Below are positions 41,451 to 64,000 of a stretch of DNA of 64,000 nucleotides, piece by piece (within the stretch, counting starts at the first letter, position 1; every line of letters begins with the position of its first letter). The notes under the pieces are model-generated. The model did not search any database. It worked only from the letters and a program-made list of their open reading frames with translations, and had not been told where the DNA came from. This DNA is from an uncultured Elusimicrobia bacterium (GTDB lineage Bacteria; Elusimicrobiota; Elusimicrobia; 2-01-FULL-59-12), in NCBI GenBank assembly GCA_963702895.1, contig OY969767.1, positions 1,056,001 through 1,120,000 of the forward strand, read 5' to 3'. The position numbers and the translations under genes are program-made.

Positions 41451-41472
41451 CGTGGCCGGTATTGTAACAAGG

Positions 41473-41504
41473 AAAAGCCCCGACGCGTTGAGGGTCGAGG
41501 CTTT
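41473..41504 (-). terminator. Probable intrinsic terminator after csp
   Basis: AAAGCC-CGAC / GTCG-GGCTTT hairpin with short T-run on the minus strand. Confidence 0.6.
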
Positions 41505-41529
41505 CTGAGACGTGCTGACGGCGCTGGTC

Positions 41530-41733
41530 TTAAGAAACTTTGGTGACGTTGGCCGCCTTGGGGCCCTTGTCAGAGTCTACGATTTCAAACTCCACGGCGT
41601 CCCCTTCGGCCAGGGATTTGAAGCCTTCGGACGTGATCGCTGAAAAATGCACGAACACGTCGCCGGAGCCGTCCTCTTTCGCGATAAAACCGAACCCCTT
41701 CTGATCATTGAACCACTTCACTTTTCCTCGCAT
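41530..41733 (-). CDS. Cold-shock protein
   Basis: GKVKWFN, KGFGFI, DVFVHFS. Confidence 0.96.
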
Positions 41734-41783
41734 GCGGGTCTCCTTATCGCTGGACTTTCCCCGCGAGCAGCGGGATTGGCCAA

Positions 41784-41812
41784 AGGCTAACTAAATGGTT
41801 TTCCCTTGTCAA
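41784..41812 (-). promoter_or_regulatory. Sigma70 promoter TTGACA-17-TAGCCT for csp
   Basis: Consensus -35 with 17-bp spacer. Confidence 0.6.
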
Positions 41813-41911
41813 CTGCAACAAGGAACGTTCCCCTGTCGTAGAGAGGAGGTAGCTTCCTCGAAGATGAGGCAGGTTGTCCGGGAAGATCAGGCTGGAGGAT
41901 GGGCGCGCTCA

Positions 41912-43099
41912 TCAGGCATCGAACCAATCGCCCGGCGGCGCCGAGAAAAACTGTTCCAGCGGTATGCCGCCGGATCCGACGACAAGCGCCTTCGCCTTGG
42001 GAAATCGCTTTTGGAACGCCATCAACCCGCTGAGGCGGCCAGGGCGGCCGCTCTTGACTTCCAGGGCGAGCACGCGGCCGGCGCGTTCCAGCACGTAATC
42101 CACTTCCTGATCACCGTCCCGCCAATAATAGACCGGCTCGCCCGGGAGCTGATTCACAAGGTAGCCCCCCACCGCATTTTCGACAAGACGTCCCCAATGG
42201 TCCGCCGAGTTGCGCACGGTCTGGTACGCCAGCCCGGGCCATGACGTCAAGAGCGCGTTGTTCCAGGTGACCAGCTTGGGGCTTGCGGCCCGCTGCCGGG
42301 CGACCCCCCCGCTCCAGAGATTTAAGCCGCTGACCAGATAGGCCGATGACAAGAGCTCCAGGTAATGCGCCAGCGTCACCGTGTTGCCCGCGTCCTGCAG
42401 CTGTCCGAGCATTTTATTGTAGGACAGCATTTGTGCCGGATGGTGCGTCGCGAGCCGGTACAGCTGTCGCAGAAGGGCCGGTTTGGTGACGGGGCTCAGC
42501 TGCAGCACATCCCGCGAAATCACGGCCTCCACCAAGGAGCTGGAAATATAGCGCCGCCATCGCTCCGGCTCTCGGGCCAGCGGGGCAGCCCCGGGGTAGC
42601 CCCCGTAAAAGATCCAGTGATCGAGCGACCAGCGAAATGCCCGACGGCACTCCGGCCAGCTCCAGTGCGGACAGTAATGAAGTTCAAAGCGGCCGGCCAG
42701 GCTTTCCCGGGCGTGCTTCTGCACATGCAGCGATGCCGATCCCAAAATAATCGCGCGAACATCCGTGCGCTCGCGGCGATCCTGGTCAAAGCACGCCTTC
42801 ACGACCTCGGCCCAGCGCGGCACTTTCTGGACTTCGTCGAGCGCCAGGACGACGGTCTTGTTGCGGCTTTTCGAGAGTTGGCGGGCCGATTGCCACTGGG
42901 ATTGAATCCAGAAGGCATCGGGAGGCGCCGGCAGATCCGCGGAAGCATAGACGCTCGGCCCCCGCCATGCCTTGAGGACTTGTTCCACGGCCGTGGTCTT
43001 GCCAACCTGGCGGGGGCCGACGACGATCTGCACCCCATGGGGCGGCGACTTCAGCCTCCGGGCAAGCACCCCTACCAGATCCCTTTTCAGCAGAGCCAT
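41912..43099 (-). CDS. AAA+ ATPase (AAA_14 + DUF4143 type) with C-terminal PD-(D/E)XK-like domain
   Basis: GPRQVGKTT, DEVQ, GSAS, ESLAGR, GGYPG, EVDYV...EVKSG. Confidence 0.9.
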   Translation of the reverse strand: MALLKRDLVGVLARRLKSPPHGVQIVVGPRQVGKTTAVEQVLKAWRGPSVYASADLPAPPDAFWIQSQWQSARQLSKSRNKTVVLALDEVQKVPRWAEVVKACFDQDRRERTDVRAIILGSASLHVQKHARESLAGRFELHYCPHWSWPECRRAFRWSLDHWIFYGGYPGAAPLAREPERWRRYISSSLVEAVISRDVLQLSPVTKPALLRQLYRLATHHPAQMLSYNKMLGQLQDAGNTVTLAHYLELLSSAYLVSGLNLWSGGVARQRAASPKLVTWNNALLTSWPGLAYQTVRNSADHWGRLVENAVGGYLVNQLPGEPVYYWRDGDQEVDYVLERAGRVLALEVKSGRPGRLSGLMAFQKRFPKAKALVVGSGGIPLEQFFSAPPGDWFDA

Positions 43100-43105
43100 G
43101 CCGTC

Positions 43106-43134
43106 AGTGTAGCAGGCGGGGGAAGCCCGGTCAA
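43106..43134 (-). promoter_or_regulatory. Sigma70 promoter TTGACC-17-TACACT, probably leaderless, for the ATPase
   Basis: -35 at 43129-43134, TG-extended -10 at 43106-43111, ATG 6 nt downstream. Confidence 0.7.
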
Positions 43135-43140
43135 TATGAT

Positions 43141-43182
43141 TTACTCAGTGCACTGAGTATTCTTGCTCAGTCGGCTGAGTAA
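43141..43182. promoter_or_regulatory. Two tandem palindromes TTRCTCAG-N4-CTGAGTAW (operator-like)
   Basis: 43141-43160 and 43163-43182, centres 22 bp apart. Confidence 0.65.
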
Positions 43183-43293
43183 TGCTACTAAGGGCCTAAG
43201 TCAAACCATGGGCCTCTTGGCCCTGTATATTTGGTCTGCCGGCCCATTTATCCACCGTCGAAGAACCCTTAGAATTGAATATCTGTCGAACGC

Positions 43294-46200
43294 ATGCGCG
43301 TGTCGCGTTCGGGGATATCTATGCCTAAATGGATTGTACGCATCGTCGCTTTGCTTCTGGTTCCCTGCCTGGCCGGGGATGCGAGCTCCACACTACCGGC
43401 GCTCGCCCGCCCTGATGTGTGGCGGGCGTTATTCCCGGCCGGTGCCGCCACCTTTAAAGACTGGAAAGCGGCGCTGGTCGCAGATCCAGCTCTGGCATCC
43501 GCGTATGCCTCGTATCCCCAAATGTCACCCGACATCAGACCGCTGAGCCGAGCTAAGGAGGCAACGGACCCAGCCGTTTTTGAATCACAGGCCCTGATCC
43601 TCCCCCTCTGCGCCATGCTGCTCGTCGGCGCCGCCGGGAAACCGTTTCTCCATACCTACCGCGCGCTTTCTGGATACACGCAAGCGCTTGGATCGACGAA
43701 GCGCCGAGGCGGGCCAAGAGGTATTACTCGCAGAAAGAAACAGCCCGGCAGATTGACGCATCAACGGTCCCGCAGGTCGTCCGGTCACCATGCAATCGCA
43801 CAAAGGCCAGGAACGTCATTAACGCGTCCGGTCTATCGTATGGGAGTTCAAATACAACGAGTGATCTTTCCGATCGTCAAAGTCTTCGCTCTCGACGATC
43901 AAGGGGGCTGGCTGGAACGTACATTTGTGTTCCAGTATTCCAACCTCCATGAATTCAGAAAGACAAAACATCCAATGCCTCACTACTTGAACGTAGAGGA
44001 TGATCGAATAAAGGAAACCATTCGGTATCTCGCGGAGGCGATTGCGCCTGGTCTGATTAATACAGCAAATGGCTTTTCTCTGGGAGATCTGATTCGCAGC
44101 ACCACGCCCCTTGGCAGCGGCACGATCGAGATTTTCTTTTCCGTATCGATGGTCGATGAGGAATGGGTCATTCAACACGAGAGCCAACAACATATTGAAG
44201 GCCGTTTGGGAGAAGTGCTTCTACGCGCTTTCCACGATCTTCATCCCTCTCAAAACACGCCTCAGCCAGAATCTGGAACAGTTTGGTTCGAGGCATCTCC
44301 TGCTCCCGCTGCCGCGCCGGACAGTGCTGCATCTCATCGGCCAGCCCGTGGGGGTTCCTCGTTCGGTAAACCGCGCGACGAGCGTCACTATCCGTACGGA
44401 ATCGATGGACCCAATAGCCGCTGGTGGAACCGCTTTCCTTTGTCCCCTTCGCCAGTCCCCAGTCTGAGCCGGAGCGGCCGCCACGGCATGCCGGGCGTGC
44501 CGGCGCTCTCCCGCGGGAACAATGACGCTCAGAATGGGCCGAGACGGTCTCCCTCCGGAGCTAGAGATGCAGCGAGTCGGGCGACGAGTTCCTTCTTGGT
44601 GAGAAACGACCATCTTTTCTACGCGACGGACTACGATCCCCCTGCGCTGCGGGCTGATGTGCGATTAATTCGTCACGGGGAGACCCTTGGGCAAAAACGC
44701 AAGATATTCCAAGGGAACCGGGACAAAGCACAGAATCAATTGGGCGAGGAAGGCCATCGACAAAAGGTTAGCGCCGCAGCTCTCTTATTCCGAGATTTTG
44801 AAGACGTGCTGCGAACGTCGCCGGAGGATATCGTCATCATCGAGAGCCCCTTGGGTCGCGCCGTCGACACTCGCAAAGCGTTTACGGACTTGGTCGCTAA
44901 GCGTTTGAAACGTTCACTCACCGTGGAGACACTGGACTTGGCTCGCGAAATCGATTTTGGCCGGTGGGACGGCCTCAGCGAAGAGGAAATTCTCAAGAAG
45001 TGGGGCCTGGACGAATTGGAGCGTGCGAAACGCTATCGTTACGAGGTTGACCCGACGGTTGTCTCGGAGGGTGGAACGTCTTACCTGGATTTCTTGACCC
45101 ACCAGGCAAGCGATCTGTTGACGTACATTAACGAGAAACACGCGGGCAAAACGGTGCTCCTCTTCGCCCATGGAACATTGGGAAGCGCTCTGAGCGTATT
45201 GCTGTCATACCCCGAAGTGGTCACAAAAGAAGGTCACATTGACTGGCGGGCAATGAATATTCCAAACGCCGTGCCCTTTCAATTGCAGCGCTATTCGCGA
45301 CCCGCCGCGGATTCGGCTACGCCCACCGCGGGCCAGCCCGCTAGCCCTGAGCGGTTCGGCAGGCTCACCGCAAGCGAGCTCGCCCTGAGCGAAGTCGAAG
45401 GGAGTCGAAGGGCCGCCGCGCCGGATACGGCGGACACGGAGACAACAGAAACACCGACACGGGGACGCGGAGAAACACCCATTGAAGTTTCCCCGCGTCA
45501 CCCCGTCGCCGCGTCTGCGCGTCCGACGTCCGATCCCGCCGCCGCGTCAACGGATCCTGACAGTATCGGATCCACAGACGCCAATAAGGATCATCGACAT
45601 CACCCACCCATCGGCAATAACCCGCACGATGTCCCCGCCGCACAGTTCCCTGTTCGACCCGCTTGGGTCTATGAGCCTTCGGTTCCACAGGAAATGAGGT
45701 CTGAATTGGAGGATATGCTCCTAAAAGGACCTCATCTGCGATCGGTTCTGGAACGCGCTGCAGATAAGACGCGGCACCCGGTCACAATTGCATTTCAAGC
45801 CTATATGAACATTGCGGCCAGAATGGGATATACCCCCGAAATGGGATATTCCATTATGTTTTCTCAGGAATGGTTGGACGATAATGAACCAAACGCATTG
45901 GGCGCTCTTGAACATGAAGTAGCACACATCGGGGTCTATGTCGACGGCATCGCTAACCTGGAGGATGACCGAACTTTTCAGACGAGTATGAGAACCCGTC
46001 CTCGCAATGATTTCTCCCATTCCGTATTGCAAGCGCTCTCCGATTTTATTGCAGTTTGCTATCAGCTCGAGCTAAATTGGGTATCGGCCGCCAGTTATAT
46101 CCTGGACGTGGTCGTCGCGCTGAATCAAAAGAGTCATGCTCGGTGGGTCAACATGGCGCCCGGGGAACAGACGCGACAGGCTGCTTTCCAATATGCACTG

Positions 46201-49200
46201 CACTATCTACGGAGTTTTATGGCTTTTGATCATGAGAACAGGGGCGTTGATCCTGCGACTCGCGAAACCTTTACATTGGCCTTCAAAGACATTTTAACAA
46301 CCGAGGAAATGACAGTAATCCGTGAAGCGCTCAACGAATCACTGAGGGGCATTCCCCTCACCCATTTGACTCATGCAGACTTTTTTGATGCGTTATGCAA
46401 TAAACTCTACACGCTCGTAGGCTCACTTGCTAAACATTCTCGCGCTGCCGCGCCGGGCACAGCCGACACGGAGACACGGGGACCCCCCGCCACTGAGGCA
46501 TTGGCGGGTCCGCCAAGAAGTAGTGGCGGAGGAGACACGGGGAATCAAGGAGCAAGCGATGGCCCCTCCGCTTTTGACGTTTCCCCGCGTCCCCCCCTCC
46601 CCGCGTCCCCGCGTCCGACGCCCAAACCCGCCGCCGCGCCGCCGACAGTCGAACCGGCGAATGGGCGAGCCGGCGATCTGGCGAAAGACCCGCCAAATGG
46701 TTCGCCGACACACCCCGTCGCCAAGTCGCTGACTCGACCGTCCGATCCCGCGTCGGGTTCGACTTCGCTCACCACAGGCCCTGAGCGAGCGGGAGCGAGT
46801 CGAAGGGCTCCCGCGCTGGAAAGTGCTGATGTGAGAAATGGTTCAGAAGAATTGGACATTCTAAGCCCAACAATCGACGCTTTGGTCAATCAATTGTGGA
46901 AAAGCATTTCACTCAATGACGCTGTGGGAAGATCACAAGCGCGGCGAGAATTGGAAGCCCTTGGGTTTAGTGTTCAAATTGGATTTTCACGTGAAATGCA
47001 TCCATATTCTGATCCACAACATATTGAAGCGCTTACGATTTATCAGACGTTAACGAAAATGGCGACTCCTGAGCAGCTCCGCTCCATCCGAGACGTTCTT
47101 TCGCATGGGATGCAAAATATCGCCAAATGGGGAGGTGGCAGAGGATTTTTATTAATGCGGCTGAATACCGAAGCAAGGGCCTTTCAAATTGTGATGGGAG
47201 ATTCTGGATTGGGAATCACATATGGCGAGGGGCCTCTGAAAGGCAGCCACGCACCGATTCATGAGGCGGTAAAACTCGGACAATCGTTCGCTGCTGGAAG
47301 CGATGGGGGAAAAGGGCTGGCTTATATGGTGATCGATCTCGACGACGTCTCTGTCACTAGCATCACCCCTGAAGACGGAGTTGCCCGCGGCCATTGGTGG
47401 AGAAAAGGATGGCAACGAGAACGCAGATTGAAGAGTAATCAAAACTTACCCTCACAGGGATTAAAGATTGTTGGCCAAAAACTTCTTGGCCCCGCCGCCG
47501 CGCCCGCCACTACACCGTTGGCGGGCAAGCCGGGCGCAGCCGACACGGGGATCGATTCACCGCGTCCCCGCGTCCCCCCTACTCCGCGTCATGATCTCTC
47601 CGCGTCACCGCGTCACCACGTCGCCGCGTCTGACTCTGTCACGGAGCCCGCCGCCGCGCCGGAACGCTTGCCCTCCCAGTTGAAAGGGAAATGGGCGTGG
47701 TTGTCGAATGCCTGGGGGGAAGCGTTCCATTGGCTCCTGGCTCCGGCGTTTGGGTTTCAAGACGCCCGGATGGTCTGGCAGAAGGACCAGGCTCCTTACG
47801 TGCATGTCCCCGGCTTGCCGGCCCGCGGCGTCCGGGCGTTTCTAATGGCGGCCGTGCATCCGCTGATCAATCTTTTCTGGACCCTTTTCCCCTGGCTCAT
47901 TTGGGACCAGCTGGCGGGTCTTCCTCAAGGCCCTCCGGCCCAGATCCTGATCACCGCGCTGATTCTTCACGCCGTCCTCAACGCCTACGGTTTTCTGGGC
48001 AACCTGATCAGCTCCTACGTTTCCCTGGTCCCATTGACTTTCTATGAGTATGACCGCGCCTCCGACCACCGCTTGATCGCCCGGCCCCGTTTCTCTATTT
48101 CCGTTCCGCGGTGGGAGGTTAAAGCCAACTCGGACTGGAACCGGATGGTTTACACGCTTTCGCTTGGGCGTCTTGGCCGCAAACCGGAGGGGGATGACCT
48201 TCATTCCGAACTGCCGCGGGGCGCCACCCCGGAAGACCGCGCCGCGTCGCCGCGTCGCCGCGTCCCCGCGTCTGCGCGTCCGCCGTCCTATCCTGCCTCG
48301 ACACCTCTTTCGTTCAAGCAGAAACAAGCTTTCATTCTCGCTCACGAGGACCGTCTTGGGGACCTCAAAAACCCTCGCCATAAGCGCGTCTTGCGCAGAT
48401 ATTTCCTGGAAGGAAAGACGCAGGAGGTCTTGGCAGCCGAATTGGGTCAAGGCCAGAGCTCAGTGTCTTCATTAATAGCACGGGCTTTCCGAGCGCTTCT
48501 TGATTGGGTGTATCCCGATGAAGCGTCAGACCTCAAATTTGTGCGTGATCACGAAGACCGCCTTAGGGAACTCAACAACCCTCGCTATGAGAGCATTTTG
48601 CGCGGGTATTTCCTGGAAGGAAAGACTCACGAGGTCTTGGCAGCTGAATTGGGTATCTCCGTTCGCTCAGTCTCTGACTCAAAAAGAACAGCCATCCGAG
48701 TTTTTCGTGATAAGGTGAACCCTGATGAAGCGTCAGACCGCAAATTTGTGATCGACCACGAGGGCCTGCTTGGGCAGCTCGCTCCTTCCCAAGTGCGCGC
48801 ATTGACCGGGTATTTCCTGGAAGGTAAGACCCTGCCAGAATTGGCGCACGCTTACGGCATCACAAAACAGGCGGTGGCCGAAGCAAAAGACCTCGGCTTG
48901 AGACAACTGCGAAGATGGGTTAAAACTCATGAGTCGCTTCTCCAGGCGCTCGTCGAGATGGATGGGTTGGTCACAGTCACGCGTATCAGCCGCCAGGTCG
49001 GGGTGACTGCGCTGAGGGTCAATTCTCATGGGGGTGTCACGGGACTGGTCGCTGAAGCGGCACCGCTGCGCGCGCTAGCGAGGCTGGAAGCGGGTCCCCT
49101 TTTCACAACGAGGCCGAAAAGAGACCTCAGTCTTCGGGACAAGGGAATGACGCGACACCGGCAGGCGACGGGATTGCCGCCGCCGGCGAAGGAACAAACC

Positions 49201-51171
49201 AAAGGGAATTCCTTCCAGGAATCTGTGAATGCCCGATTCAAATCGGGAACGAAGTCTGAATTGACGGAATTCCTGGGAAGCTTAACGTCTGATCAACGGA
49301 ATCGATTAACGGATGTTCAGCGCCGTTTGCTTCTTTTTGTCTGGCTTTTCATCGATGACCCTATGGGCGGAGACCATTACGGAAAAATTGGTGAAAAGCT
49401 AATTGATTTCCCGATGCAAACATGGATTCTCGGGGACCAATCCGAGCGCCAATCTGATCCGTGGATTGCCATGACCGGGGTGGCAAAAACTCTGCAATCT
49501 TTCATCTATGAGCTAAGCTTTCACTGGCAGCGTGGGATCCCCTGGCGCCGAAAAACGATGATTGATGCTTTACAAGGTCCCACCACGGACTTGCTGGGCG
49601 CCGATACATACCAACGATTGGCCGTCTTAGCGAGGGAGCGTCGCTATCCAAAGAAGGGAAATCGCAGCACCCGTTTGGCCGGGATAGACTCCGATGACAG
49701 GATTGTTGATAGCATCGGTGGCATGGACTGGGCCAGGGGTGAATGGTTCAGCAAATACATTGACACGCCGTATTATGATGCTTATGCAGGTCTTATTCTC
49801 GCCCCTACCGCTGCGTCGAATGATCCGACAAAAATAAATCCAGCCCAGACCCCGCTAGCGCGCGCCCTCTGGTTGAAAATCGCCGGGAAAAGCGCGACCA
49901 ACACCCGGGCGGAATCCTGGTTTACGGCGGTCCTCGAATGGCTTCCCTGGCTGGCGCTGGTGGGGGCAGCGGCGCTCCAAGCCCTGCATTCGCCGAGTGG
50001 TTATTCCTGGCTGCTGATCCCGGTCAGCGCTTCGATCGCGATGATCTTTTTATACGCCCTGCACGCGTGGGTCCCCCGGTGGGCCCCGCCAGGCGTTGAA
50101 CGCGTAAAAGTCGGGCGCGAAACATGGCCCCTGGCGGCCGGCTTGTTTGCTGTGGACGTCTTGGCGGGCTTCTCGGTGGCTTGGGGCGTGGGGTTGGCGG
50201 CGGTGCCACTCGTTCTGCTGGGGTGGTTCCTTCACGCCAGGCACGACCGGCGAATCTTCAATCAACGGACGACAGGCGACCGCGATTTTGGAAAAACGGG
50301 ATTGAGATTCTTTGTCCTTGGCCTTGGAACGATCTGGCTTGGACGGCGGTGGCCGCCCGGTAACGCCAGCTATTCAGATCCTTCCGAAGAGGAAATCGAT
50401 AAACATCTTGAAGAAGCGTTCGTCTCGATGGGGAACAAGGACGGTGTCGTCATGCTGGATACCGCGGCCGCCTACGGCCGATCGGAGGAGCGCCTCGGGC
50501 GCTTCTTGCTAAAACGTCCCGATCTGGCGCGACGCGCTTTTATCGCCACGAAGTGGGGTGAGGAGTTTGATCCAGTGACGAACCGATCGTGGAAGGATTT
50601 CTCGGTTCAAAATCTGAGGGCCTCTTTCAAGCGGAGCCAGGATCACCTTGGCAAAGTGGACCTGCTTTACATCCACATGTCCACGGACGCCTCCGCGGAT
50701 GTCCTGCGCGACGAGGCTGTGCGGCAGGAGATGGAACGTATGAAAATCGATGGGGAGGTGCGGCTCATCGGCGCATCGATCTCCAATGAAGCGATCCTGG
50801 CCGAGGCTATAGAACAAGGCTCACTGAATGGCTTCGATGTGATCCAGATGCCGGCCCCTCTCTTTTTGAAGCGGCCCGCTTTGGCTTCGGCCTTACACCA
50901 ACGTGGCTTCGCCGTTGTTCTTAATTCCCCTGTCCGCAAAGCGGACAATCAGAATCCCGAAAACGCAATCCGTGAATTGGCCAACCGGCCCGAGGTTTCC
51001 ATGATTCTCACGGGGACCCGGATGCACCTGGGAGAAACGGTGAGCTACCTGGGCACACCTCCCAGCGCGCCCAAAGGAAGGCTTCCGCTTTGGCGGCAAT
51101 GGAAAAACTGGCTGTTTGCGCCGGCGGATAAAAACGCTCGCTTCTCTCATCGGGTCCGGGCTGCCGCGTAA
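43294..51171 (+). CDS. Giant 2625-aa multidomain mosaic protein
   Basis: Uninterrupted 7.9-kb ORF: signal-like N-terminus, RHG phosphatase, HEVAH, RsbT-like ATPase, three sigma-region-4 HTH, TMs, aldo-keto reductase. Start may be ATG 43321. Confidence 0.88.
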   Translation: MRVSRSGISMPKWIVRIVALLLVPCLAGDASSTLPALARPDVWRALFPAGAATFKDWKAALVADPALASAYASYPQMSPDIRPLSRAKEATDPAVFESQALILPLCAMLLVGAAGKPFLHTYRALSGYTQALGSTKRRGGPRGITRRKKQPGRLTHQRSRRSSGHHAIAQRPGTSLTRPVYRMGVQIQRVIFPIVKVFALDDQGGWLERTFVFQYSNLHEFRKTKHPMPHYLNVEDDRIKETIRYLAEAIAPGLINTANGFSLGDLIRSTTPLGSGTIEIFFSVSMVDEEWVIQHESQQHIEGRLGEVLLRAFHDLHPSQNTPQPESGTVWFEASPAPAAAPDSAASHRPARGGSSFGKPRDERHYPYGIDGPNSRWWNRFPLSPSPVPSLSRSGRHGMPGVPALSRGNNDAQNGPRRSPSGARDAASRATSSFLVRNDHLFYATDYDPPALRADVRLIRHGETLGQKRKIFQGNRDKAQNQLGEEGHRQKVSAAALLFRDFEDVLRTSPEDIVIIESPLGRAVDTRKAFTDLVAKRLKRSLTVETLDLAREIDFGRWDGLSEEEILKKWGLDELERAKRYRYEVDPTVVSEGGTSYLDFLTHQASDLLTYINEKHAGKTVLLFAHGTLGSALSVLLSYPEVVTKEGHIDWRAMNIPNAVPFQLQRYSRPAADSATPTAGQPASPERFGRLTASELALSEVEGSRRAAAPDTADTETTETPTRGRGETPIEVSPRHPVAASARPTSDPAAASTDPDSIGSTDANKDHRHHPPIGNNPHDVPAAQFPVRPAWVYEPSVPQEMRSELEDMLLKGPHLRSVLERAADKTRHPVTIAFQAYMNIAARMGYTPEMGYSIMFSQEWLDDNEPNALGALEHEVAHIGVYVDGIANLEDDRTFQTSMRTRPRNDFSHSVLQALSDFIAVCYQLELNWVSAASYILDVVVALNQKSHARWVNMAPGEQTRQAAFQYALHYLRSFMAFDHENRGVDPATRETFTLAFKDILTTEEMTVIREALNESLRGIPLTHLTHADFFDALCNKLYTLVGSLAKHSRAAAPGTADTETRGPPATEALAGPPRSSGGGDTGNQGASDGPSAFDVSPRPPLPASPRPTPKPAAAPPTVEPANGRAGDLAKDPPNGSPTHPVAKSLTRPSDPASGSTSLTTGPERAGASRRAPALESADVRNGSEELDILSPTIDALVNQLWKSISLNDAVGRSQARRELEALGFSVQIGFSREMHPYSDPQHIEALTIYQTLTKMATPEQLRSIRDVLSHGMQNIAKWGGGRGFLLMRLNTEARAFQIVMGDSGLGITYGEGPLKGSHAPIHEAVKLGQSFAAGSDGGKGLAYMVIDLDDVSVTSITPEDGVARGHWWRKGWQRERRLKSNQNLPSQGLKIVGQKLLGPAAAPATTPLAGKPGAADTGIDSPRPRVPPTPRHDLSASPRHHVAASDSVTEPAAAPERLPSQLKGKWAWLSNAWGEAFHWLLAPAFGFQDARMVWQKDQAPYVHVPGLPARGVRAFLMAAVHPLINLFWTLFPWLIWDQLAGLPQGPPAQILITALILHAVLNAYGFLGNLISSYVSLVPLTFYEYDRASDHRLIARPRFSISVPRWEVKANSDWNRMVYTLSLGRLGRKPEGDDLHSELPRGATPEDRAASPRRRVPASARPPSYPASTPLSFKQKQAFILAHEDRLGDLKNPRHKRVLRRYFLEGKTQEVLAAELGQGQSSVSSLIARAFRALLDWVYPDEASDLKFVRDHEDRLRELNNPRYESILRGYFLEGKTHEVLAAELGISVRSVSDSKRTAIRVFRDKVNPDEASDRKFVIDHEGLLGQLAPSQVRALTGYFLEGKTLPELAHAYGITKQAVAEAKDLGLRQLRRWVKTHESLLQALVEMDGLVTVTRISRQVGVTALRVNSHGGVTGLVAEAAPLRALARLEAGPLFTTRPKRDLSLRDKGMTRHRQATGLPPPAKEQTKGNSFQESVNARFKSGTKSELTEFLGSLTSDQRNRLTDVQRRLLLFVWLFIDDPMGGDHYGKIGEKLIDFPMQTWILGDQSERQSDPWIAMTGVAKTLQSFIYELSFHWQRGIPWRRKTMIDALQGPTTDLLGADTYQRLAVLARERRYPKKGNRSTRLAGIDSDDRIVDSIGGMDWARGEWFSKYIDTPYYDAYAGLILAPTAASNDPTKINPAQTPLARALWLKIAGKSATNTRAESWFTAVLEWLPWLALVGAAALQALHSPSGYSWLLIPVSASIAMIFLYALHAWVPRWAPPGVERVKVGRETWPLAAGLFAVDVLAGFSVAWGVGLAAVPLVLLGWFLHARHDRRIFNQRTTGDRDFGKTGLRFFVLGLGTIWLGRRWPPGNASYSDPSEEEIDKHLEEAFVSMGNKDGVVMLDTAAAYGRSEERLGRFLLKRPDLARRAFIATKWGEEFDPVTNRSWKDFSVQNLRASFKRSQDHLGKVDLLYIHMSTDASADVLRDEAVRQEMERMKIDGEVRLIGASISNEAILAEAIEQGSLNGFDVIQMPAPLFLKRPALASALHQRGFAVVLNSPVRKADNQNPENAIRELANRPEVSMILTGTRMHLGETVSYLGTPPSAPKGRLPLWRQWKNWLFAPADKNARFSHRVRAAA

Positions 51172-51231
51172 TATCCCCCTCTGAAGCTGATTCAAATCTC
51201 AAATGGAGTGATCCTTTGAAGCAGATCCAGT

Positions 51232-51292
51232 GATTAGGCAGGTTCTCCTTGAAAAATTAAGCAGGTTGGCTGAGAGATTAGGTAGGCTCCTC
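51232..51292. repeat. Three-unit fragment of the GATTAGG repeat array
   Basis: Matches the first units of the array at 51984 with the same 23/21 spacing. Confidence 0.7.
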
Positions 51293-51303
51293 CCAGAGAA
51301 GCG

Positions 51304-51816
51304 CTATTCATGCTTGAAGCCTTTGATCCGTAATGGGGCATCCGCCGGCTTTGCCATCAGCCCACGGATCGCGTCGAAGACCACTTTAAATTGCGCGTCG
51401 TATTTGTTTTCCAGCTCATGCAGCTTGCGGGCCAAGTCTTTGTGAGTGGCCAACATCTCTCTGATCCTTACAAAGGCATCCACAACCGCGAGGCTTGCTT
51501 TCACGGCGGTCTCACTATTGAGAACGCAAGCCAGCATGATCGCGCCATGCTCCGTGAAAACAAGGGGCAAATAACGTCGCCCTCCGTGGGCCATTCTTGA
51601 GGTCGCATTTTGCGACCTCAAGCGGCGCGCTTCCCCTTCGGCAAGCTGGAACATATATCGAGGCGGGAACCGGATTCGATTTCGCTTCACCTGTTCATTC
51701 AAACGTTTGGTCGTTACTCCATAGAGTTCCGCCAGATCTTCGTCCAGCATCACTTTATATCCACGAATCAGATAAATATACTGCTCAATCTTGATGCTCG
51801 GTACAGGTTTATTCAT
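51304..51816 (-). CDS. ORF6N/KilA-N-domain DNA-binding protein
   Basis: IRGYKVMLDEDLAELYGV, QVKRN..RFP, FTEHGAIMLA.VL.S; GAGGAG SD before ATG 51816. Confidence 0.92.
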   Translation of the reverse strand: MNKPVPSIKIEQYIYLIRGYKVMLDEDLAELYGVTTKRLNEQVKRNRIRFPPRYMFQLAEGEARRLRSQNATSRMAHGGRRYLPLVFTEHGAIMLACVLNSETAVKASLAVVDAFVRIREMLATHKDLARKLHELENKYDAQFKVVFDAIRGLMAKPADAPLRIKGFKHE

Positions 51817-51979
51817 GGGCTCCTCCTCTCCCTTAGATGGAGAACACCCGAAAATATTCACTGCTTAGACAAAGAGTTCAGACCCATCCGAGAACCCATT
51901 GCGTTTCGCATTTCGCCTTTTACATTCTTCATTTTGACTTGAGACACACCAGCGGTCGCAAGAGATGAAGCAGCTTCGT

Positions 51980-52272
51980 CAAAGATTAGGCAGGTTCCCC
52001 TGGAAAGATTAAGCAGGTTCACGGAAAGATTGAGACGGCTCCTCGAAGAACGAGACGGTTGGTCGGGAAAGAAAGAGACGGTTGGCAAAGAGAATGAGAC
52101 GGCTCCTCGAAGATTAGGTAGGTGACCCCGGAAAGATTAGGCAGGTTGGCCGAAAGATTAGGTAAGTTCCTCGAAGATTAGGTAAGTTCCCCGCGAAAGA
52201 TTAGGTAAGTCGACCGAAAGATTAGGTAAGCTGGCGGAAAGATTAGGTAAGTTGACCGAAAGATTAAGCAGG
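51980..52272. repeat. Direct-repeat array A, 14 units of about 21 bp (GAAAGATTAGGTAAGTTggcc)
   Basis: Unit spacings 23,21,20,23,21,20,23,21,20,23,21,21,21. Confidence 0.9.
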
Positions 52273-52592
52273 TCTGTCCGCGCCGGACGGCACGGGTTGG
52301 TACAGCGTGGCGGGGTCACGGGGATCGCCGGAGCGCTTGATCAGGCCGCGGTCCATGAGGTTGCCCAGGATTCTTAAGGTGGCCGTGCGCGAAAGGTTTA
52401 GCAGCTTTTCCACATCCTCCCGGCGCAGGCCGGCGCTCTGGCGCGCGGCGTCCAGGATCATCTTCTCGTAGCGTTCCCGTTTGCGGCTGACCCAGCGGTT
52501 TTGGGTGGAGGGGGGCAGGGGGTGACGAAGGCGTCGGCGCCGCGGCCTGGCCTTCGCCCTCGAGCTGTTGTTTGAGCCCCCGTGCGCCTTTT
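52264..52592 (-). pseudogene. 5'-truncated, frameshifted paralog of the 4TM-wHTH gene (3' HTH part only)
   Basis: Aligns with 54545-54873; extra G in the G-run near 52510; 65-aa HTH ORF remains at 52264-52461. Confidence 0.8.
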
Positions 52593-52699
52593 CAAACAGG
52601 TCGAACAGATCAGGTCAAGCAAATCCAGGTTCCAAACACGCTTCATCGCAAAGGATGTGGAAGGCGAGCGCAGGGTTCTGTTATACAATCATCGTCAAG

Positions 52700-53347
52700 A
52701 TGACGCCAAAGGATCGTTACGATGTGTCCGATTTGCCGGAGGCGCAGTTTGAGCCGGGCTCACGAAGGCAGGTTCTGCGCAATCGTTTAGGCATCAGAAC
52801 GATTGCCGCCATGGAGAATGCCGAAGAGCTGGCCTTGAAAAAGGCGACAGACATTCTTCTGCATACCTACTCAAAGGACCATCGCTTTAAGGCCAATGAC
52901 ATCCGTCATATGCACCGGCTTTGGCTATCGGACATCTACGGCTGGGCAGGCAATTATCGGAGGGTCAATCTGAGCAAGACGGGATTCATGTTTGCTGTTG
53001 CCCAGCACGTTCCCGGATTGATGCAGGAATTTGAAACGACTGCTCTGAAAGAATGCACCCCTTGTCATCCTGGGGATATTGAGACGATTGCAGAACATTT
53101 GGCGAAGGTCCACGTTGAACTCGTGCTGATACACCCCTTCCGGGAAGGAAACGGACGTGTTGCCCGGCTACTCACGACCTTCATGGCGCTCCAGGCCGAT
53201 CTGCCGCTCCTGGATTACAGAAGCATTCTGGGGAAATCGACACCCGTTTATTTTGCCGCCATTCAAGCGGGCATGAAACGAGACTACTTGCCCATGCGGA
53301 AAGTGATGAAATCAGTGATTGCGCGTACGCTCAGGCGGCTTTCTTAA
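52700..53347 (+). CDS. Fic-family AMPylase toxin
   Basis: Canonical HPFREGNGRVAR motif; N-terminal VLRNRLGI; WAGNYR. Confidence 0.93.
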   Translation: MTPKDRYDVSDLPEAQFEPGSRRQVLRNRLGIRTIAAMENAEELALKKATDILLHTYSKDHRFKANDIRHMHRLWLSDIYGWAGNYRRVNLSKTGFMFAVAQHVPGLMQEFETTALKECTPCHPGDIETIAEHLAKVHVELVLIHPFREGNGRVARLLTTFMALQADLPLLDYRSILGKSTPVYFAAIQAGMKRDYLPMRKVMKSVIARTLRRLS

Positions 53348-53501
53348 ACAGGCGTATTTTCTGCTTTAAGGTGCGGAGCGCCGTGGCAAAAGAACCCGTT
53401 TCGACGGCGGTAGAAGAGGCGACGTTCAGCGTGAGCGCCTTTTCGTATTTGCGCCGGTCTCGAAGGTAGGGGCTCGTCGCCAGCAGTGATTTCTTTTTCA
53501 T
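53331..53501 (-). CDS. Putative Fic antitoxin, 56 aa (below ORF-track cutoff)
   Basis: MKKKSLLATSPYLRDRRKYEKALTLNVASSTAVETGSF...KAA; SxxxE inhibitory-like motif; own TG-TAGACT -10 6 nt upstream. Confidence 0.7.
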   Translation of the reverse strand: MKKKSLLATSPYLRDRRKYEKALTLNVASSTAVETGSFATALRTLKQKIRLFKKAA

Positions 53502-53567
53502 GAAACAAGTCTACCATGATGGCCGCACCAATTCCAGACTTCCCAGCCGTTGCAGAAAGGACCTCCT

Positions 53568-54314
53568 ATGAAATTCGAGCTTTCTGACGAACAACTGAAA
53601 AATCTGCTGGTTCTGGCGTATCTGGGCGAATGGATGGCTAATGCGACCAGGGAAGAGCCGATCAAAGACTATGAGCAAGCCGCTTCCAGGATTTACGCCC
53701 TGGCCCAAGGAACCGCGCTGGAGCGCTACGTGGACTACGATGATCAGTCGCGGCGGTGGTGGCCCAGCAAGGAGCTGGACGAAGCAGCGGAACCGTTGCG
53801 CAGCGATTATGACGATGAGACGTTCTGGGACGAACTGCTGGACCGCCTGATCGACCGGGACCTTGCCGCAACATACGGGGTTGGGATTTTGGGTTCGAAG
53901 GACCGTGATAAATATTGCGCCCTGCGAGAGCCGATCGAGTCACGCTACGGGACGGAGTTTGAACGCTTTGGGATTGATCGCCTCAAGCTGCCCGAGGGTC
54001 TTCCTGAAGAAGACGCTTACTCCCCCTCGCCGGCCCAGGCGACAGCGATGGGCTTGGCGTGGTACCGGTCCGATCAATGGGAACAGCTTCGGTCCATCTC
54101 CGCGGACCGCGATGAGCTCGAAGAAAGATACGTGGAATGGTTAAAGACCGCTTCTAACCTCTTTTCCCAGCTCACGCTGCGGGGTCAAGAGATCAAAAAG
54201 GTATTAGTGGACGTCAATGATCTCGCCAAATGGTGTAAAGCCAAGGGCCTTCTTGTCGATTCCCATTCCCGATCTGCTTTCGTCGCGGACCAGCTCCGAA
54301 CGACGAAGTCCTGA
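53568..54314 (+). CDS. Hypothetical acidic two-domain protein
   Basis: Open frame with AAAGGA SD before MKFEL; no family recognised. Confidence 0.7.
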   Translation: MKFELSDEQLKNLLVLAYLGEWMANATREEPIKDYEQAASRIYALAQGTALERYVDYDDQSRRWWPSKELDEAAEPLRSDYDDETFWDELLDRLIDRDLAATYGVGILGSKDRDKYCALREPIESRYGTEFERFGIDRLKLPEGLPEEDAYSPSPAQATAMGLAWYRSDQWEQLRSISADRDELEERYVEWLKTASNLFSQLTLRGQEIKKVLVDVNDLAKWCKAKGLLVDSHSRSAFVADQLRTTKS

Positions 54315-54391
54315 CAAGCATCCGCTTCCCGGAGGTTGGCAGTACGAATGAGCGCCGAAGGACGCCAAAGCGACCCGAGGCCGGATTGGCA

Positions 54392-54553
54392 AATAGATTA
54401 ACCGGGTTCCTCGAAGATCGGGCCGGTTCCCCGAAAGATTAGGCAGGTTGGCCGAAAGATTAGGTAAGTTCCTCGAAGATTAGGTAAGTTCCCTGCGGAA
54501 GATTAGGTAAGTTGGCCGAAAGATTAGGTAAGTTAACCGAAAGATTAGGCAGG
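54392..54553. repeat. Direct-repeat array B, 8 units of about 21 bp
   Basis: Unit spacings 20,21,21,20,23,21,21; same consensus as array A. Confidence 0.9.
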
Positions 54554-55282
54554 CTTGTCCGTCGCAGCCTGCCCGGATTGGTAGAGCGTGGCGGGGTCAC
54601 GGGGATCGCCGGCGCGCTTGATCAGGCCGCGGTCCATGAGGCTGCCCAGGATCCTTAAGGTGGCCGTGCGCGAAAGGTTCAGCAGCTTTTCCACATCCTC
54701 CCGGCGCAGGCCGGCGCTCTTGCCAGTGGCGTCCAGGACAATCTTCTCGTAGCGTTCCCGCTTCCGGCTGACCCAGCGGTGTTGGGTGGAGGGGGTAGGG
54801 GGTGACGAAGGCGGCGGGGCCGCGGACTCGCCTTTGGCCTCGAGCTGCCGTTCGAGTTCCTGATGCGCTTTTTCCTCCACGCGGACGCTCAACCACCGGG
54901 AGGCACTCGATCCGATGTAGAACCCGAGGACTTCGAAGGCAATCAAGGTAAGTCCCTTGGGGTAGGCCAGGCGCGCCGGCCAGATCTCGGAGCCGAGCAC
55001 CGCCACGAGCAGGAAGACCGCCCATAGTCCGACGAACCATTCCCCTTTGAGCCGGAAAGGCGCGGGTTGCGTCTCTCCTTCGGCCGCCAGTTTCTCCGGA
55101 TGGAAGCCGATCGTCCACCGGTGGACTTCTTTCCCCCCCACATAAGCCGAAAGCAATGCCAGGTAGAAGGCGTTGGCGGTGCTGACGTTGATCTGGACAT
55201 GAGCGGCGGTGGCGAACTCCGCGACCTGCACGCCGAAAAGAGCCAGGGTGTAGAGCGCGCTCAGCCAGAAAAGAAAGGTCAT
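54545..55282 (-). CDS. Membrane protein (about 4 TM) with Pro-rich linker and C-terminal winged-HTH-like domain
   Basis: Four hydrophobic segments, then LRREDVEKLLNLSRTATLRILGSLMDRGLIKRAG...TLY. Confidence 0.8.
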   Translation of the reverse strand: MTFLFWLSALYTLALFGVQVAEFATAAHVQINVSTANAFYLALLSAYVGGKEVHRWTIGFHPEKLAAEGETQPAPFRLKGEWFVGLWAVFLLVAVLGSEIWPARLAYPKGLTLIAFEVLGFYIGSSASRWLSVRVEEKAHQELERQLEAKGESAAPPPSSPPTPSTQHRWVSRKRERYEKIVLDATGKSAGLRREDVEKLLNLSRTATLRILGSLMDRGLIKRAGDPRDPATLYQSGQAATDKPA

Positions 55283-55284
55283 GC

Positions 55285-55629
55285 TCAAGGTTTGATCTCC
55301 CTGCGGCGATGATGAAAAACGGGGCGCTGATTTTCCCAGCCTTCTGTCCTAAGCAAGGATCTCTTGGTTCGAATCCCCCCGCGGCCGGAGTAGCCGGTCA
55401 TCTGGCCGCCCGCGCCCAAGACGCGGTGGCAGGGGATCCGGGGCGCGAAAGGGTTGGCGGCGAGCGCCCTTCCCACCGCGCGCGCGGCGCCGGGCCGGCC
55501 GATCGCGCGCGCGAGCCAGCCATAGGTCCTCGTTTGCCCGCGCGGGATTCTGGCGCAGGCTTTCCAGACGCTTTGGTAAAAATCCGGGTACTTCTTCATC
55601 TGCTCGCGAAGGTCTCGGGCAAGTTTCAC
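55285..55629 (-). CDS. MGMT/Ogt-family methylated-DNA cysteine methyltransferase (binding domain only)
   Basis: IPRGQTRTYG, ARAVG.A, IPCHRV, GYSG; start 55629 or 55599. Confidence 0.9.
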   Translation of the reverse strand: MKLARDLREQMKKYPDFYQSVWKACARIPRGQTRTYGWLARAIGRPGAARAVGRALAANPFAPRIPCHRVLGAGGQMTGYSGRGGIRTKRSLLRTEGWENQRPVFHHRRREIKP

Positions 55630-55630
55630 G

Positions 55631-57421: not shown

Positions 57422-58911
57422 GACTTTTTCACCGGTTCGAGGGCCCCCACGGTCAGGTTGTCCTTCAGAAAATATTTCCGTGCAAAGAGCTGGATGTCTT
57501 GGGCGCTCAGCTCTTTAATTTGCTGTTGGAAACGCAAGAGATAACGCCAATCACCAAAAATGGACTGGTTGTAAACCAAGGTGCTGGCCATGCCGGAATT
57601 GGTTTGCAGGGTTTCCAGAATGCCGACTTCGACGGCCGCTCTCACCTTTTCCAGTTCCCAAGGTTCCACGGGGTCTTTTTTGAGGCGATTCAGTTCATGC
57701 TCGATGGCTTGGGTGACCTGCGCATTGGTATGGGGATGGCGCGCTTGGGCCGAGATCAGGAACAGCGAGGCATAGCGCTCTCCGGGATAGTCTTGGGCGG
57801 TCTCCACGGCGGCGGCGACCTTTTTCTTTTCCACGAGCGCCTTGTAAAAACGAGATGTCGAACCGGTCCCCAAGAGATAGGAAACGGCATAGGCGATGAC
57901 CTGGTCTGGATGAGGGTAACCCGGGATGTGGTAGCCGAGAACAACCTGGGGTTGGGCCTCAAAGGTGACACTCGTTTGCCTTGCTCCGGTTTGTTTCGGT
58001 TCCGGGGCGATGTGGCTTGGGGGAGGTCCTGCGACGCGCCAGTTTCCAAAGTACTTTTCCACCAGCCGGAGGGTGTCCTGAGCTTTCACGTCACCGACGA
58101 TGCTGATCGTGAGTTGGTCCGGGGTGTAGTGCTTCTGGTAGAAGTCGACCAGGTCCGAAACATAAAGGTGATCCAGATCGCCCTCCCAGCCGATCGTGGG
58201 ATTGCGATAGGGGTGCGACTGGTAAGCCACGGAGGTAAAGACCTCAAAGAGTTTACCTTCGGGGTCCGTGTCGATCCTCATGCGGCGCTCTTCCTTCACG
58301 ACCTCACGCTCCTGGTAGAACTGCCGGAAAACCGGGTTCTTGAGCCGGTCGGAGTCCAGGATCGCCCAGAGTTCGATCTTGTTGGACGGCAGATCCACCA
58401 TGTATTGCGTAAAGTCTCGGGAGGTGCTGGCGTTGAGCACCGAAGCACCCTCGCGCTCATAGAGGTTCCAGAGTTCGTTATCGACAATATAGGCGCGGGA
58501 TTTTTCTTCGACGACGCGCAGCTCATCAATGAGGTCGCCAATACGCTTTTGATCGGCCTGATCGTTCCTCTGCTTTTCTTTGGCGATGGCCAACTGAAGG
58601 CGATCCATGTGTGCCAGAAGCGGCGCTTCGGCGGCATAGTTGTGGGTGCCGAGGGTCTTGGTGCCCTTGAACATCATGTGTTCAAACATGTGCGCGAGGC
58701 CCGTCTTGCCCGTCGTTTCATCCACCGATCCCACACGGAACATCATGCGGATCGACACGGTCGGCGAGAAATGCCGTTCCAGAATGAGCAGCTTGATGCC
58801 ATTGGACAACGTGTGTTCGACCACCCGTTGCTCGAGTAAGGAGCTTTCGCCAAAAGCGCAAGAGCTCGCCAGCGCCACGAGCAACAAAGAGAAACACCTT
58901 GTCCGCTTCAT
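57418..58911 (-). CDS. M16 zinc peptidase, catalytic subunit
   Basis: Signal peptide, GSVDE, GLAHMFEHMMFKG (HxxEH), NASTS, EERR. Confidence 0.93.
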   Translation of the reverse strand: MKRTRCFSLLLVALASSCAFGESSLLEQRVVEHTLSNGIKLLILERHFSPTVSIRMMFRVGSVDETTGKTGLAHMFEHMMFKGTKTLGTHNYAAEAPLLAHMDRLQLAIAKEKQRNDQADQKRIGDLIDELRVVEEKSRAYIVDNELWNLYEREGASVLNASTSRDFTQYMVDLPSNKIELWAILDSDRLKNPVFRQFYQEREVVKEERRMRIDTDPEGKLFEVFTSVAYQSHPYRNPTIGWEGDLDHLYVSDLVDFYQKHYTPDQLTISIVGDVKAQDTLRLVEKYFGNWRVAGPPPSHIAPEPKQTGARQTSVTFEAQPQVVLGYHIPGYPHPDQVIAYAVSYLLGTGSTSRFYKALVEKKKVAAAVETAQDYPGERYASLFLISAQARHPHTNAQVTQAIEHELNRLKKDPVEPWELEKVRAAVEVGILETLQTNSGMASTLVYNQSIFGDWRYLLRFQQQIKELSAQDIQLFARKYFLKDNLTVGALEPVKKS

Positions 58912-58924
58912 GAATTGGATTGTA

Positions 58925-60235: not shown

Positions 60236-60268
60236 CGATTCATTATAAAGGGGGCGGCGCGCGAACAA

Positions 60269-60934: not shown

Positions 60935-60942
60935 CGTTCGCT

Positions 60943-61158: not shown

Positions 61159-61279
61159 GGATGCTCATAGTGTAAACCGTCGCAGGAACCGGGTCAAGGA
61201 GTGTTTTCTCCAGGAGTGTTTTCTCTGGAAGCCCGCTGAAGTCCATGGTGATATGAAAATGGTATTCTCATCGCGCATC

Positions 61280-62386: not shown

Positions 62387-62475
62387 CCCAAAATCTTAAG
62401 TTGCCCATCATCTCCCTCTCCCGCCTCACGGCGGGCGAGGGGACAATCATGTCTGGACATCTACGAAAGTCAGCA

Positions 62476-63999: not shown

Positions 64000-64000
64000 A

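Follow-up and report, generated by a model that had tools for sequence, protein, structure and literature searches.

We analysed a 64,000-nucleotide (nt) window from the genome of an uncultured Elusimicrobia bacterium (GenBank assembly GCA_963702895.1, contig OY969767.1, positions 1,056,001 to 1,120,000), in which a long open reading frame (ORF; 43294..51171, forward strand) codes for a mosaic of unrelated enzyme and regulator domains. This mosaic gene almost certainly belongs to the headless branch of a giant-protein family built from an N-terminal leader, variable cargo and a C-terminal tail ending in Ala-Ala (AA). Some members of the family start with a fused domain, the head, modelled with the fold of the TIKI/EreA/ChaN superfamily. 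The mosaic gene has the leader, an F-x-x-Q-A-L motif and the AA tail and lacks the head, and thus fits the headless subtype as it is defined here. What appears to be new is this headless variant together with a candidate trans-acting partner, a TIKI-like head encoded by a stand-alone gene.

A family with constant ends

The source genome (G000; related genomes are numbered likewise) was a single contig of 2.72 Mb and 98% complete. Its best SecA match in a capped scan of named genomes was an Elusimicrobia metagenome-assembled genome (60% identity), so that a place in Elusimicrobiota is probable. Collected by leader, head and tail, the mosaic family comprised 22 genes and 6.6% of this genome, a count that is partly circular because some short members were chosen by their tails. 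Five members were TIKI-headed, one carried a DEAD/SecA-like module and 16 were headless (the mosaic gene and 15 others). Fifteen ended in AA, five in SA and one each in TA and NA, and outside their ends the members shared nearly no sequence. Among non-overlapping ORFs, AA ends were present in 12 of 33 of at least 1400 amino acids (aa) versus 19 of 882 of 300-600 aa. The original prediction, made from the nucleotide sequence without database searches, had envisaged paralogs sharing the leader and a C-terminal RAAA. Such paralogs exist, and the C-terminal end they share is AA. The description of the gene as a polymorphic mosaic was also borne out, with constant ends, a variable middle and cargo differing in every genome.

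The leader of the mosaic gene was 60% identical over 43 aa to that of a paralog (G000:1417356) and 39% identical over 135 aa to a protein of G005, and leader proteins of two relatives aligned directly. It carries an insertion and scored weakly on the leader profile (E 2.2e-4), outside the 13 source-genome matches of the genome-wide leader scan. The profile recovered 5-30 copies in 9 of 10 genomes of the same bacterial family and one weak match in 30 others. For an out-of-sample comparison, 40 stretches with long frames were fetched from eight relatives around listed leader matches, giving 46 leader-bearing ORFs. The head was present in none of the 46, and F-x-x-Q-A-L in 38, compared with 23 of 1109 other ORFs of the source genome. 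Where these ORFs reached a stop, 24 of 35 ended in AA and 31 of 35 in A; the AA background was 26 of 1109 ordinary ORFs.

The open frame and its constant parts are as follows.

43294..51171 (+), mosaic ORF, 2625 aa, likely start at 43321 (2616 aa); headless member of the leader/cargo/AA-tail family
43321..43392 (+), signal-peptide-like leader; family pattern R-x-x-A-L-L-L-V-x-C-L-L-x-D-P, here ...PCLAGD; presumably cut by signal peptidase
43579..43596 (+), FESQAL, the local form of the F-x-x-Q-A-L motif conserved in headless members; may mark a docking or cutting site
43591..43788 (+), hydrophobic stretch (residues 100-119), then a very basic stretch; possible stop-transfer helix, in the mosaic gene only
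51109..51171 (+), basic C-terminal tail ending in Ala-Ala; ssrA/ClpX-degron-like by sequence

The ORF is a single uninterrupted frame of 2625 codons ending in RVRAAA-stop, and every motif quoted when it was first described is present in the order given. In the protein collection the gene call starts nine codons downstream, at 43321 (MPKW, 2616 aa); this start is likely and agrees with that of a paralog (MPKSLIRIVAL).

Pfam domains in the source-genome family included TIM, FBPase_3, URO-D, glucosamine isomerase, PfkB, RmlD, methyltransferases and PP2C, as well as DnaJ, receiver and HATPase domains, LysM, SLT, GT5, HEAT and TPR; one paralog had 12,887 aa. In 28 leader-bearing proteins of relatives, Pfam found TIM, PGK, iPGM, AceK, PCMT, GNAT and methyltransferases, and 15 of the 28 had no match. 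We rejected the idea that cargo consists of copies of the genome's own genes, since the best identities for 24 tested family modules were 23-52% and 14 had no match. Neither the archaeal-type FBPase_3 cargo (G000:C1:802676-807853, residues 1240-1463) nor the URO-D cargo (G000:C1:1604215-1607223) had a stand-alone homolog in the genome. Two paralogs (G000:C1:1408982-1416426 and 1604215-1608903) were frame-broken soon after the leader and are either pseudogenes or assembly errors.

Fused and stand-alone heads

The fused head is a 350-500-residue N-terminal domain, marked by IQDLH, in five giants of the source genome. Its profile matched these five and two stand-alone genes of the same genome, and did not match the mosaic gene. 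Of 150 genomes of the class, 49 had the head, and within a family it was nearly always either present throughout or missing.

G000:C1:2368884-2369897 (-), stand-alone TIKI head 1, 337 aa; signal-like N-terminus, catalytic set
G000:C1:272097-273152 (+), stand-alone TIKI head 2, 351 aa; signal-like N-terminus, catalytic set

A model of the fused head, built from 32 sequences, reached a predicted local distance difference test score (pLDDT) of 90.6. Its best four structural matches among 48,161 chains were ChaN (Z 8.9, root-mean-square deviation 5.9, 177 residues aligned), EreC (Z 8.6, 4.0, 155), 2qgm (Z 8.2, 4.7, 153) and HopBA1 (Z 8.1, 3.8, 157), with unrelated folds from Z 7.7 downward. Foldseek also ranked the TIKI/EreA/ChaN superfamily at the top, short of significance. 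The Pfam family PF04187 matched the head of G028 (E 8.6e-7), and the head profile gave nothing significant against PDB sequences. Residues D14, H16, E44, R296 and H326 were invariant in the 32 fused heads, and the catalytic set was also present in eight stand-alone sequences. Compared without superposition, these residues correspond in order and spacing to the 2His/2Glu plus Arg set given for the TIKI protease RRSP in the excerpt of PMC6254334 (E3900, H3902, E3930, R4001 and H4030). On the strength of the model, the head has a TIKI/EreA/ChaN fold; the stand-alone genes were assigned to it by profile.

Orthologs of stand-alone head 1 (61-80% identity) were found in 9 of 10 genomes of the same family, in one case split over two contig ends, and in none of the 140 other genomes of the class at E<=1e-25 with 14 candidates scored per genome. 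Stand-alone head 2 had orthologs in up to 7 of the 10. The nine genomes with stand-alone head 1 are the same nine that hold headless leader genes. Synteny of this gene was conserved at 7 of the 8 loci inspected, and its C-terminus is RLREEE instead of AA, as would be expected for machinery and not for cargo. The tenth genome, G007 (95% complete), had no headless genes, no headed genes and no stand-alone head, and the flanking genes were in order at the intact site. G007 was nested in the family on a short SecA tree (SH-like approximate likelihood ratio test 90). Its state reads as one joint loss, which is consistent with a functional link between stand-alone head and headless genes.

Stand-alone head 2 lies directly after two PilT-like genes and a cNMP-binding gene. 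In G008 (C132:1-7904, locus L163) a headed giant contained a near-complete SecA, 31% identical over 881 aa to the housekeeping SecA.

Cargo, linkers and membrane modules

Between its constant ends the mosaic gene is divided as follows.

43831..44283 (+), unassigned globular module; G+C content at third codon positions (GC3) 0.48; no Pfam/NCBIfam match
44632..45303 (+), histidine phosphatase cargo with RHG and HG motifs; Pfam E 3.4e-18
45394..45558 (+), copied Pro/Ala linker, RAAAP-x-TADTET...SPR...PAAA; contains an 8-nt palindromic repeat element
45661..46428 (+), HExxH module; HEVAH at 45913-45927; GC3 0.50; SprT-like E 0.063
46432..46647 (+), copied linker; 86% identity over 65 nt to the linker at 45394..45558
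46861..47493 (+), divergent GHKL-like module; GC3 0.44; ESM Atlas 0.95-0.96; no hidden Markov model (HMM) or sequence match
47488..47667 (+), copied linker; homologous copy
47677..48033 (+), membrane block 1 with E, H and HxxxN; pattern by eye; no score on the block-2 profile
48214..48309 (+), short linker copy; homologous
48331..48948 (+), three tandem sigma-70 region-4 helix-turn-helix units; Pfam; tandem duplication
48961..49818 (+), unassigned module; no Pfam/NCBIfam match
49894..50268 (+), membrane block 2, a four-helix module; conserved E7, E15, H57, H114 and D118; CPBP-like pattern
50275..51063 (+), aldo-keto reductase (AKR) cargo; small subfamily with stand-alone and fused members

Several domains that had been read from motifs were recovered by Pfam, namely the histidine phosphatase (His_Phos_1, residues 458-633), the three sigma-region-4 units (Sigma70_r4 in three stretches, E 5.8e-18) and the aldo-keto reductase (Aldo_ket_red, residues 2342-2547, E 4.9e-16). 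Other assignments held in part. The HEVAH motif of the proposed HExxH domain is present, and for its family the evidence is a weak SprT-like match. The proposed GHKL/RsbT-like ATPase has its motifs by eye and matching ESM Atlas clusters, some with HATPase_c in 10-21% of their members; however, Pfam, NCBIfam and PDB sequences gave no match, and no family homolog was found at E<=0.1 among 2858 candidates. We regard this module as likely to have a divergent GHKL fold. Block 2 of the two predicted transmembrane (TM) blocks was modelled as a confident four-helix bundle, whereas block 1 shows by eye a similar E/H/HxxxN pattern and did not score on the block-2 profile. With three modules unassigned, Pfam detected no glycosidase, lectin or adhesin domain in the mosaic gene, and no known toxin domain, immunity gene, RTX repeats or CPD in the gene and its surrounding island.

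Catalytic motifs are intact in both the phosphatase and the AKR. The phosphatase module was 45% identical to one in G010 that forms part of a leader-bearing protein of 1356 aa, compared with 28% to the source genome's own stand-alone phosphatase. The sigma-4 units are DNA-level repeats spaced about 207 nt apart. No collinear ortholog was found in 40 relatives, queried with residues 1-1069 and 2190-2589 (residues 1070-2189 were not searched there), or among 7,999 scored candidates of 1443-4594 aa. Widespread full-length collinear orthologs, which the original prediction had named as the finding that would speak against a mosaic, were thus not seen in these relatives.

The AKR module occurs in different contexts. 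It was 44% identical to a module of a headed 2051-aa protein from another family and 44-58% identical to modules in 10 other proteins of 1.7-4.5k aa with different neighbours. Three of these are named Ca. Omnitrophica/Omnitrophota, which bears out a kinship to giant proteins, here those of Omnitrophota. Stand-alone AKRs of the same small subfamily were up to 54% identical, and 21 of 52 matches of the subfamily were fused by a length rule, two of them being plain GNAT fusions. A phylogeny for each domain had been recommended; for the AKR a quick tree showed fused and stand-alone forms interleaved, and strong branches forced only one of its eight changes. Repeated capture of the AKR is therefore suggested but not forced by the tree.

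The four linkers lie at module borders and are homologous in-frame copies, up to 86% identical over 65 nt. Four of the 14 clusters of the 8-nt palindromic element in the genome sit inside the mosaic gene. GC3 was 0.44-0.50 in three modules, compared with a genome median of 0.67 and a fifth percentile of 0.55, and 0.74-0.77 in the membrane blocks. This difference in composition suggests that the cargo is foreign and recently acquired and the scaffold older. The 8-nt palindromic elements of the genome fall into two families (14 and 48 clusters) and are often translated in frame, even within TIKI heads. A short junction peptide repeat of the AGAEE/LASN type was sought in the mosaic gene and rejected, as an exact k-mer count returned the sigma-4 repeats alone; the linkers are longer and degenerate. 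Short repeated junction words (AGAEE/AGLEE, LASN, PAPQAA, GRGMP, TRSSAS) were found in the AKR-sharing giants P0006, P0008, P0024, P0004, P0005, P0009 and P0010, and in several of these giants copies lay near the AKR borders.

The model of membrane block 2 has four helices (pLDDT 91.6). Over 17 aligned rows, H57 was conserved in at least 90% and H114 and D118 were invariant. The block was 38% identical to a module of a 1104-aa leader protein of a relative. Its profile had 16 matches over 1.84 billion representatives, of which four were repeat-derived and dropped, one was the gene itself and 11 were related mosaic proteins or fragments (three of them profile seeds), 10 of the 11 ending in A. 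Block 2 is thus a rare module confined to related mosaic proteins. Like CPBP/Rce1 intramembrane proteases (PF02517), it is a membrane unit of four helices in which Glu, His and HxxxD/N are conserved, and its FxxxH and HxxxN/D positions fit the motifs of that family. It departs from the EExxxR motif of CPBP, as E7 and E15 are eight residues apart and no Arg is conserved, and it has Asp in place of Asn. None of the 17 block-2 members matched PF02517, and PDB sequences gave CPBP membership no support. Two fold searches gave generic bundles (best Z 7.8) with Rce1 absent among the matches listed, and ESM Atlas scores were below 0.9.

Proposed processing and alternative explanations

We tentatively propose, with somewhat less than even confidence, that the mosaic protein is exported by its leader and matured in trans by the stand-alone TIKI hydrolase, and that its modules work inside a cytoplasm, most probably a partner cell's. 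In this scheme the leader would target the protein to the Sec pathway, and the stand-alone head would recognise the region around F-x-x-Q-A-L and cut or mature the chain in trans; fused heads would do the same in cis. A complex prediction of the stand-alone head with the F-x-x-Q-A-L segment gave no usable answer (score 0.01). Modules would then be freed or handed on to function in the cytoplasm, most probably, of a contacted prey or host cell, and the Ala-Ala tail would let a ClpX-type unfoldase or tail-specific protease take hold of the protein. Taken by itself, processing of headless proteins by the stand-alone head may be real but has a little under an even chance, and action of the cargo in another cell is about as likely. 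Extended to the family, the proposal becomes doubtful: one exported TIKI hydrolase would act in trans on 5-30 mobile headless polyproteins carrying F-x-x-Q-A-L and Ala-Ala, in a split giant-protein system delivering modules into prey or host. It is similarly doubtful that the modules freed here would be the phosphatase, a GHKL kinase-like unit, sigma-4 decoys and the reductase.

Several points weigh against this proposal. The co-occurrence of stand-alone head and headless genes amounts to one gain and one loss among kin, and the strict threshold with 14 candidates scored per genome leaves room for divergent stand-alone heads in other families. Esterases, a haem-binding protein and inactive domains also have the TIKI fold, and the head's Z-scores exceed those of unrelated folds by only about 1. 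In 15 headed proteins no F-x-x-Q-A-L-type motif was seen by eye behind the head, so that the motif is not an obvious cis site. No dedicated delivery machine was found. The Tad pilus was rejected as a dedicated exporter, being absent from most genomes of three head-bearing families (CpaB in 0 of 12, 1 of 15 and 0 of 1), and CpaB was present in 37 of 37 and 35 of 35 genomes of two families without heads. By Pfam the mosaic gene has no cell-wall, adhesion or toxin domain, and the hydrophobic-then-basic stretch after FESQAL would leave the cargo in the producer's cytoplasm. The proposal presupposes cleavage, export, expression and a host; export or delivery to another cell, or processing into modules, had also been the inference of the original prediction.

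The main alternative, which we consider less likely than not but likelier than those discussed after it, is that the protein is a membrane-tethered scaffold in the producer's cytoplasm, with the leader and the hydrophobic stretch after FESQAL forming a hairpin, the four-helix modules stapling the cargo, and ClpXP turning the product over via Ala-Ala. The four-helix modules may also free the sigma-4 block by intramembrane cutting. In the mosaic gene the hydropathy over 17 residues after FESQAL is 1.94 and a basic run follows; in 38 motif-bearing relatives it was -0.6 to 1.4, and as all 38 lacked the hydrophobic stretch, a hairpin topology was rejected as a family trait. The cargo requires cytoplasmic cofactors or DNA (NADPH, ATP), and the even number of helices in the block-2 model would leave the flanking cargo on one side; yet cargo varies between all genomes and follows no common pathway, and HMM and fold searches found no CPBP kinship of the module. 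The genome has ClpX and its tmRNA tag ends in LAA. Of the 22 relatives belonging to head-bearing families, 21 had ClpX above the cut-off; of the 18 from the other nine families, none did. This split, however, falls on a single branch of the RpoB tree, so that it was not accepted as independent support, and G007 retains ClpX without the family. (In the RpoB tree, rows G035, G040 and G018 were ignored as mis-extracted and G022 was left out.) In the available text, Nielsen and Lui (bioRxiv 10.64898/2026.06.07.730766) leave such a reading open for giants with TM segments only. A scaffold also leaves the exported stand-alone head unexplained. As a separate observation among 41 relatives, ClpX was below the family cut-off in all 18 sampled genomes of nine families of the class. 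These genomes group to one side of the RpoB tree, which looks like a loss of ClpX throughout a lineage.

We think it improbable that the family is a gene-capture platform, in which islands acquire foreign frames between leader and degron tail via copied linkers and the short-lived product is a domain library of near-neutral cargo. The island site, its direct repeat and the repeat arrays common to two other headless loci would suit capture, as would the copied linkers at module borders, the low-GC3 modules, the two paralogs frame-shifted after the leader and the interleaved AKRs. Against it, a frame of 7.9 kb has stayed open with phosphatase and AKR catalytic motifs intact, the same small AKR subfamily is fused in 21 of 52 matches, and the stand-alone head is strongly conserved. 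More improbable still is a surface-anchored adhesion and cell-wall-digesting complex as proposed for the Archaeovorins of Omnitrophota: a signal-like leader and shared cargo types (TIM, FBPase, GT5, SLT, methyltransferases, HEAT, TPR) link the family to them, but the mosaic gene lacks the glycosidase, lectin and adhesin domains searched for with Pfam, and its sigma-4 repeats, AKR and GHKL module have no obvious extracellular use. An assembly or gene-calling artefact fusing separate genes is hardly credible, as the same modules are fused in independent assemblies, leader and tail obey the family rule, and the linkers are homologous in-frame copies.

Relation to known systems

The broad phenomenon of giant mosaic proteins is already in print, as the main texts of two preprints make clear. 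Archaeovorin-type giants of Omnitrophota were described by West-Roberts et al. (bioRxiv 10.1101/2023.11.21.568195), whose main text also names Elusimicrobiota as having very large genes and does not contain the words TIKI, ChaN or ClpX. As portrayed there, Archaeovorins resemble the proteins studied here in their signal peptide, TM segments, unrelated cytoplasmic enzymes and possible cleavage, and the source-genome family also has a DEAD/SecA-like module. Unlike them, the mosaic protein has 2.6k aa (versus more than 30k), many dispersed paralogs per genome and an island location, and it lacks a SecA, C39 or S8 domain. The Class 1 'multi-enzyme metabolic clusters' of Nielsen and Lui are similar, according to the main text, in the many distinct Pfams tiled along a signal-peptide and TM protein, the regulatory and sugar-metabolism modules, the unique sequences and the mobile-element flanks. 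The mosaic gene shares with these giants the unrelated enzyme domains and, by hydropathy and model, the signal peptide and TM segments; however, that set begins at 10,000 aa (here 2625 aa) and is restricted to Omnitrophota. A headless subtype or stand-alone head was not seen in its main text, from which TIKI, ChaN and PF04187 are also absent. Literature searches, which for preprints covered the main text, found no paper joining TIKI with giant proteins of Elusimicrobiota or Omnitrophota.

In the excerpt of PMC7652416, Ala-Ala is a key ClpX determinant of ssrA-type C-terminal degrons. The terminal Ala-Ala of the family tail is alike; the tails differ from the degrons described there in being basic before Ala-Ala, in their SA, TA and NA variants and in belonging to proteins with an export-type leader. 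Sister heads and two stand-alone genes resemble the TIKI/EreA/ChaN superfamily (ChaN 2g5g, EreC 6xcq, Bcr135/136, HopBA1 5t09, RRSP) by their fold or by profile, and they carry its D/E-x-H, E, R, H set. In contrast, the mosaic gene has no head, and the head has a long helical insert and Asp as its first acid. MARTX and polymorphic toxins have constant ends, exchangeable inner modules, repeated linkers and a proposed proteolytic release, features that are common to the mosaic gene. Its cargo, however, is metabolic and regulatory, and RTX repeats, the CPD protease, an immunity gene and a toxin domain were not detected.

Whether giants are cut, by what, and where their cargo works is stated as an open question in the main texts of both preprints. 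Proteins of 10,000-100,000 residues are hard to assay, whereas the question could be tested in E. coli or in vitro with a stand-alone head of 337 residues and headless substrates of 300-2,600 residues that carry a conserved six-residue motif. The mosaic gene is only one of many and its domain mix is not special in itself. The original prediction had overlooked the published type, the headless variant of a TIKI-headed family, the copied linkers and the 14-kb island. If the family-wide reading with delivery into prey or host is correct, the system would amount to an effector platform that has a processing enzyme and address tags of its own. The stand-alone head, being small and expressible, would then give access to the cutting of giant proteins.

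The island and its surroundings

The mosaic gene lies in an island among housekeeping genes.

41451..55284 (no strand), island, about 14 kb long, with secA on one side and the MGMT/M16 peptidase genes on the other; absent at the site in 8 of 8 same-family genomes with secA found
51982..52260 (+), AAGATTAGGTAAG-type repeat array; a second array at 54435-54541

The island contains an AAA_14+DUF4143 ATPase, the mosaic gene, ORF6N, Fic, an unknown ORF and a TM+MarR gene, as well as a 513-nt direct repeat of 84% identity. secA was found in 8 of the 10 same-family genomes, and in all eight the M16 peptidase gene was within about 2.3 kb upstream; here 14 kb intervene. Genome-wide there were four AAGATTAGGTAAG-type arrays at three loci, each at most 4 kb from a headless gene; 12% of random positions were within 10 kb of any family gene. 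The other arrays were at G000:C1:1428114 and 1600407, and a TM+MarR gene or remnant stood beside arrays only at headless genes. Arrays and TM+MarR genes together may thus mark one type of mobile island that these loci share.

The TM+MarR gene had a third copy, at 1393691-1394551. An insertion sequence transposase lay within 3 kb of 4 of 23 family ORFs, and several adjoined tRNA genes. In a named Elusimicrobia metagenome-assembled genome (L075, 8930-9454), ORF6N is directly upstream of secA-lnt, matching the source locus minus the giant gene and the ATPase. Pfam gave no match for a SecA DEAD module or a type II secretion/pilus locus in the mosaic gene or the island. Elsewhere in the source genome (G000:C1:715192-807853) the gene directly after a Tad pilus cluster codes for a protein of 4068 aa that has a divergent DEAD/SecA-like module, and four more family genes, of 12,887, 3012, 1529 and 1725 aa, lie in the same stretch.

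The remainder of the window (1-41450 and 55285-64000) is housekeeping, with names taken mostly from reading the translations: pilT, pta, coaD, recG, thiG, lipid A genes, bamA, tamB, clpC-mcsB-mcsA, ilvE, lolDE, lysS, prfB, lnt, secA, MGMT, two M16 peptidases, uvrC and nadE.

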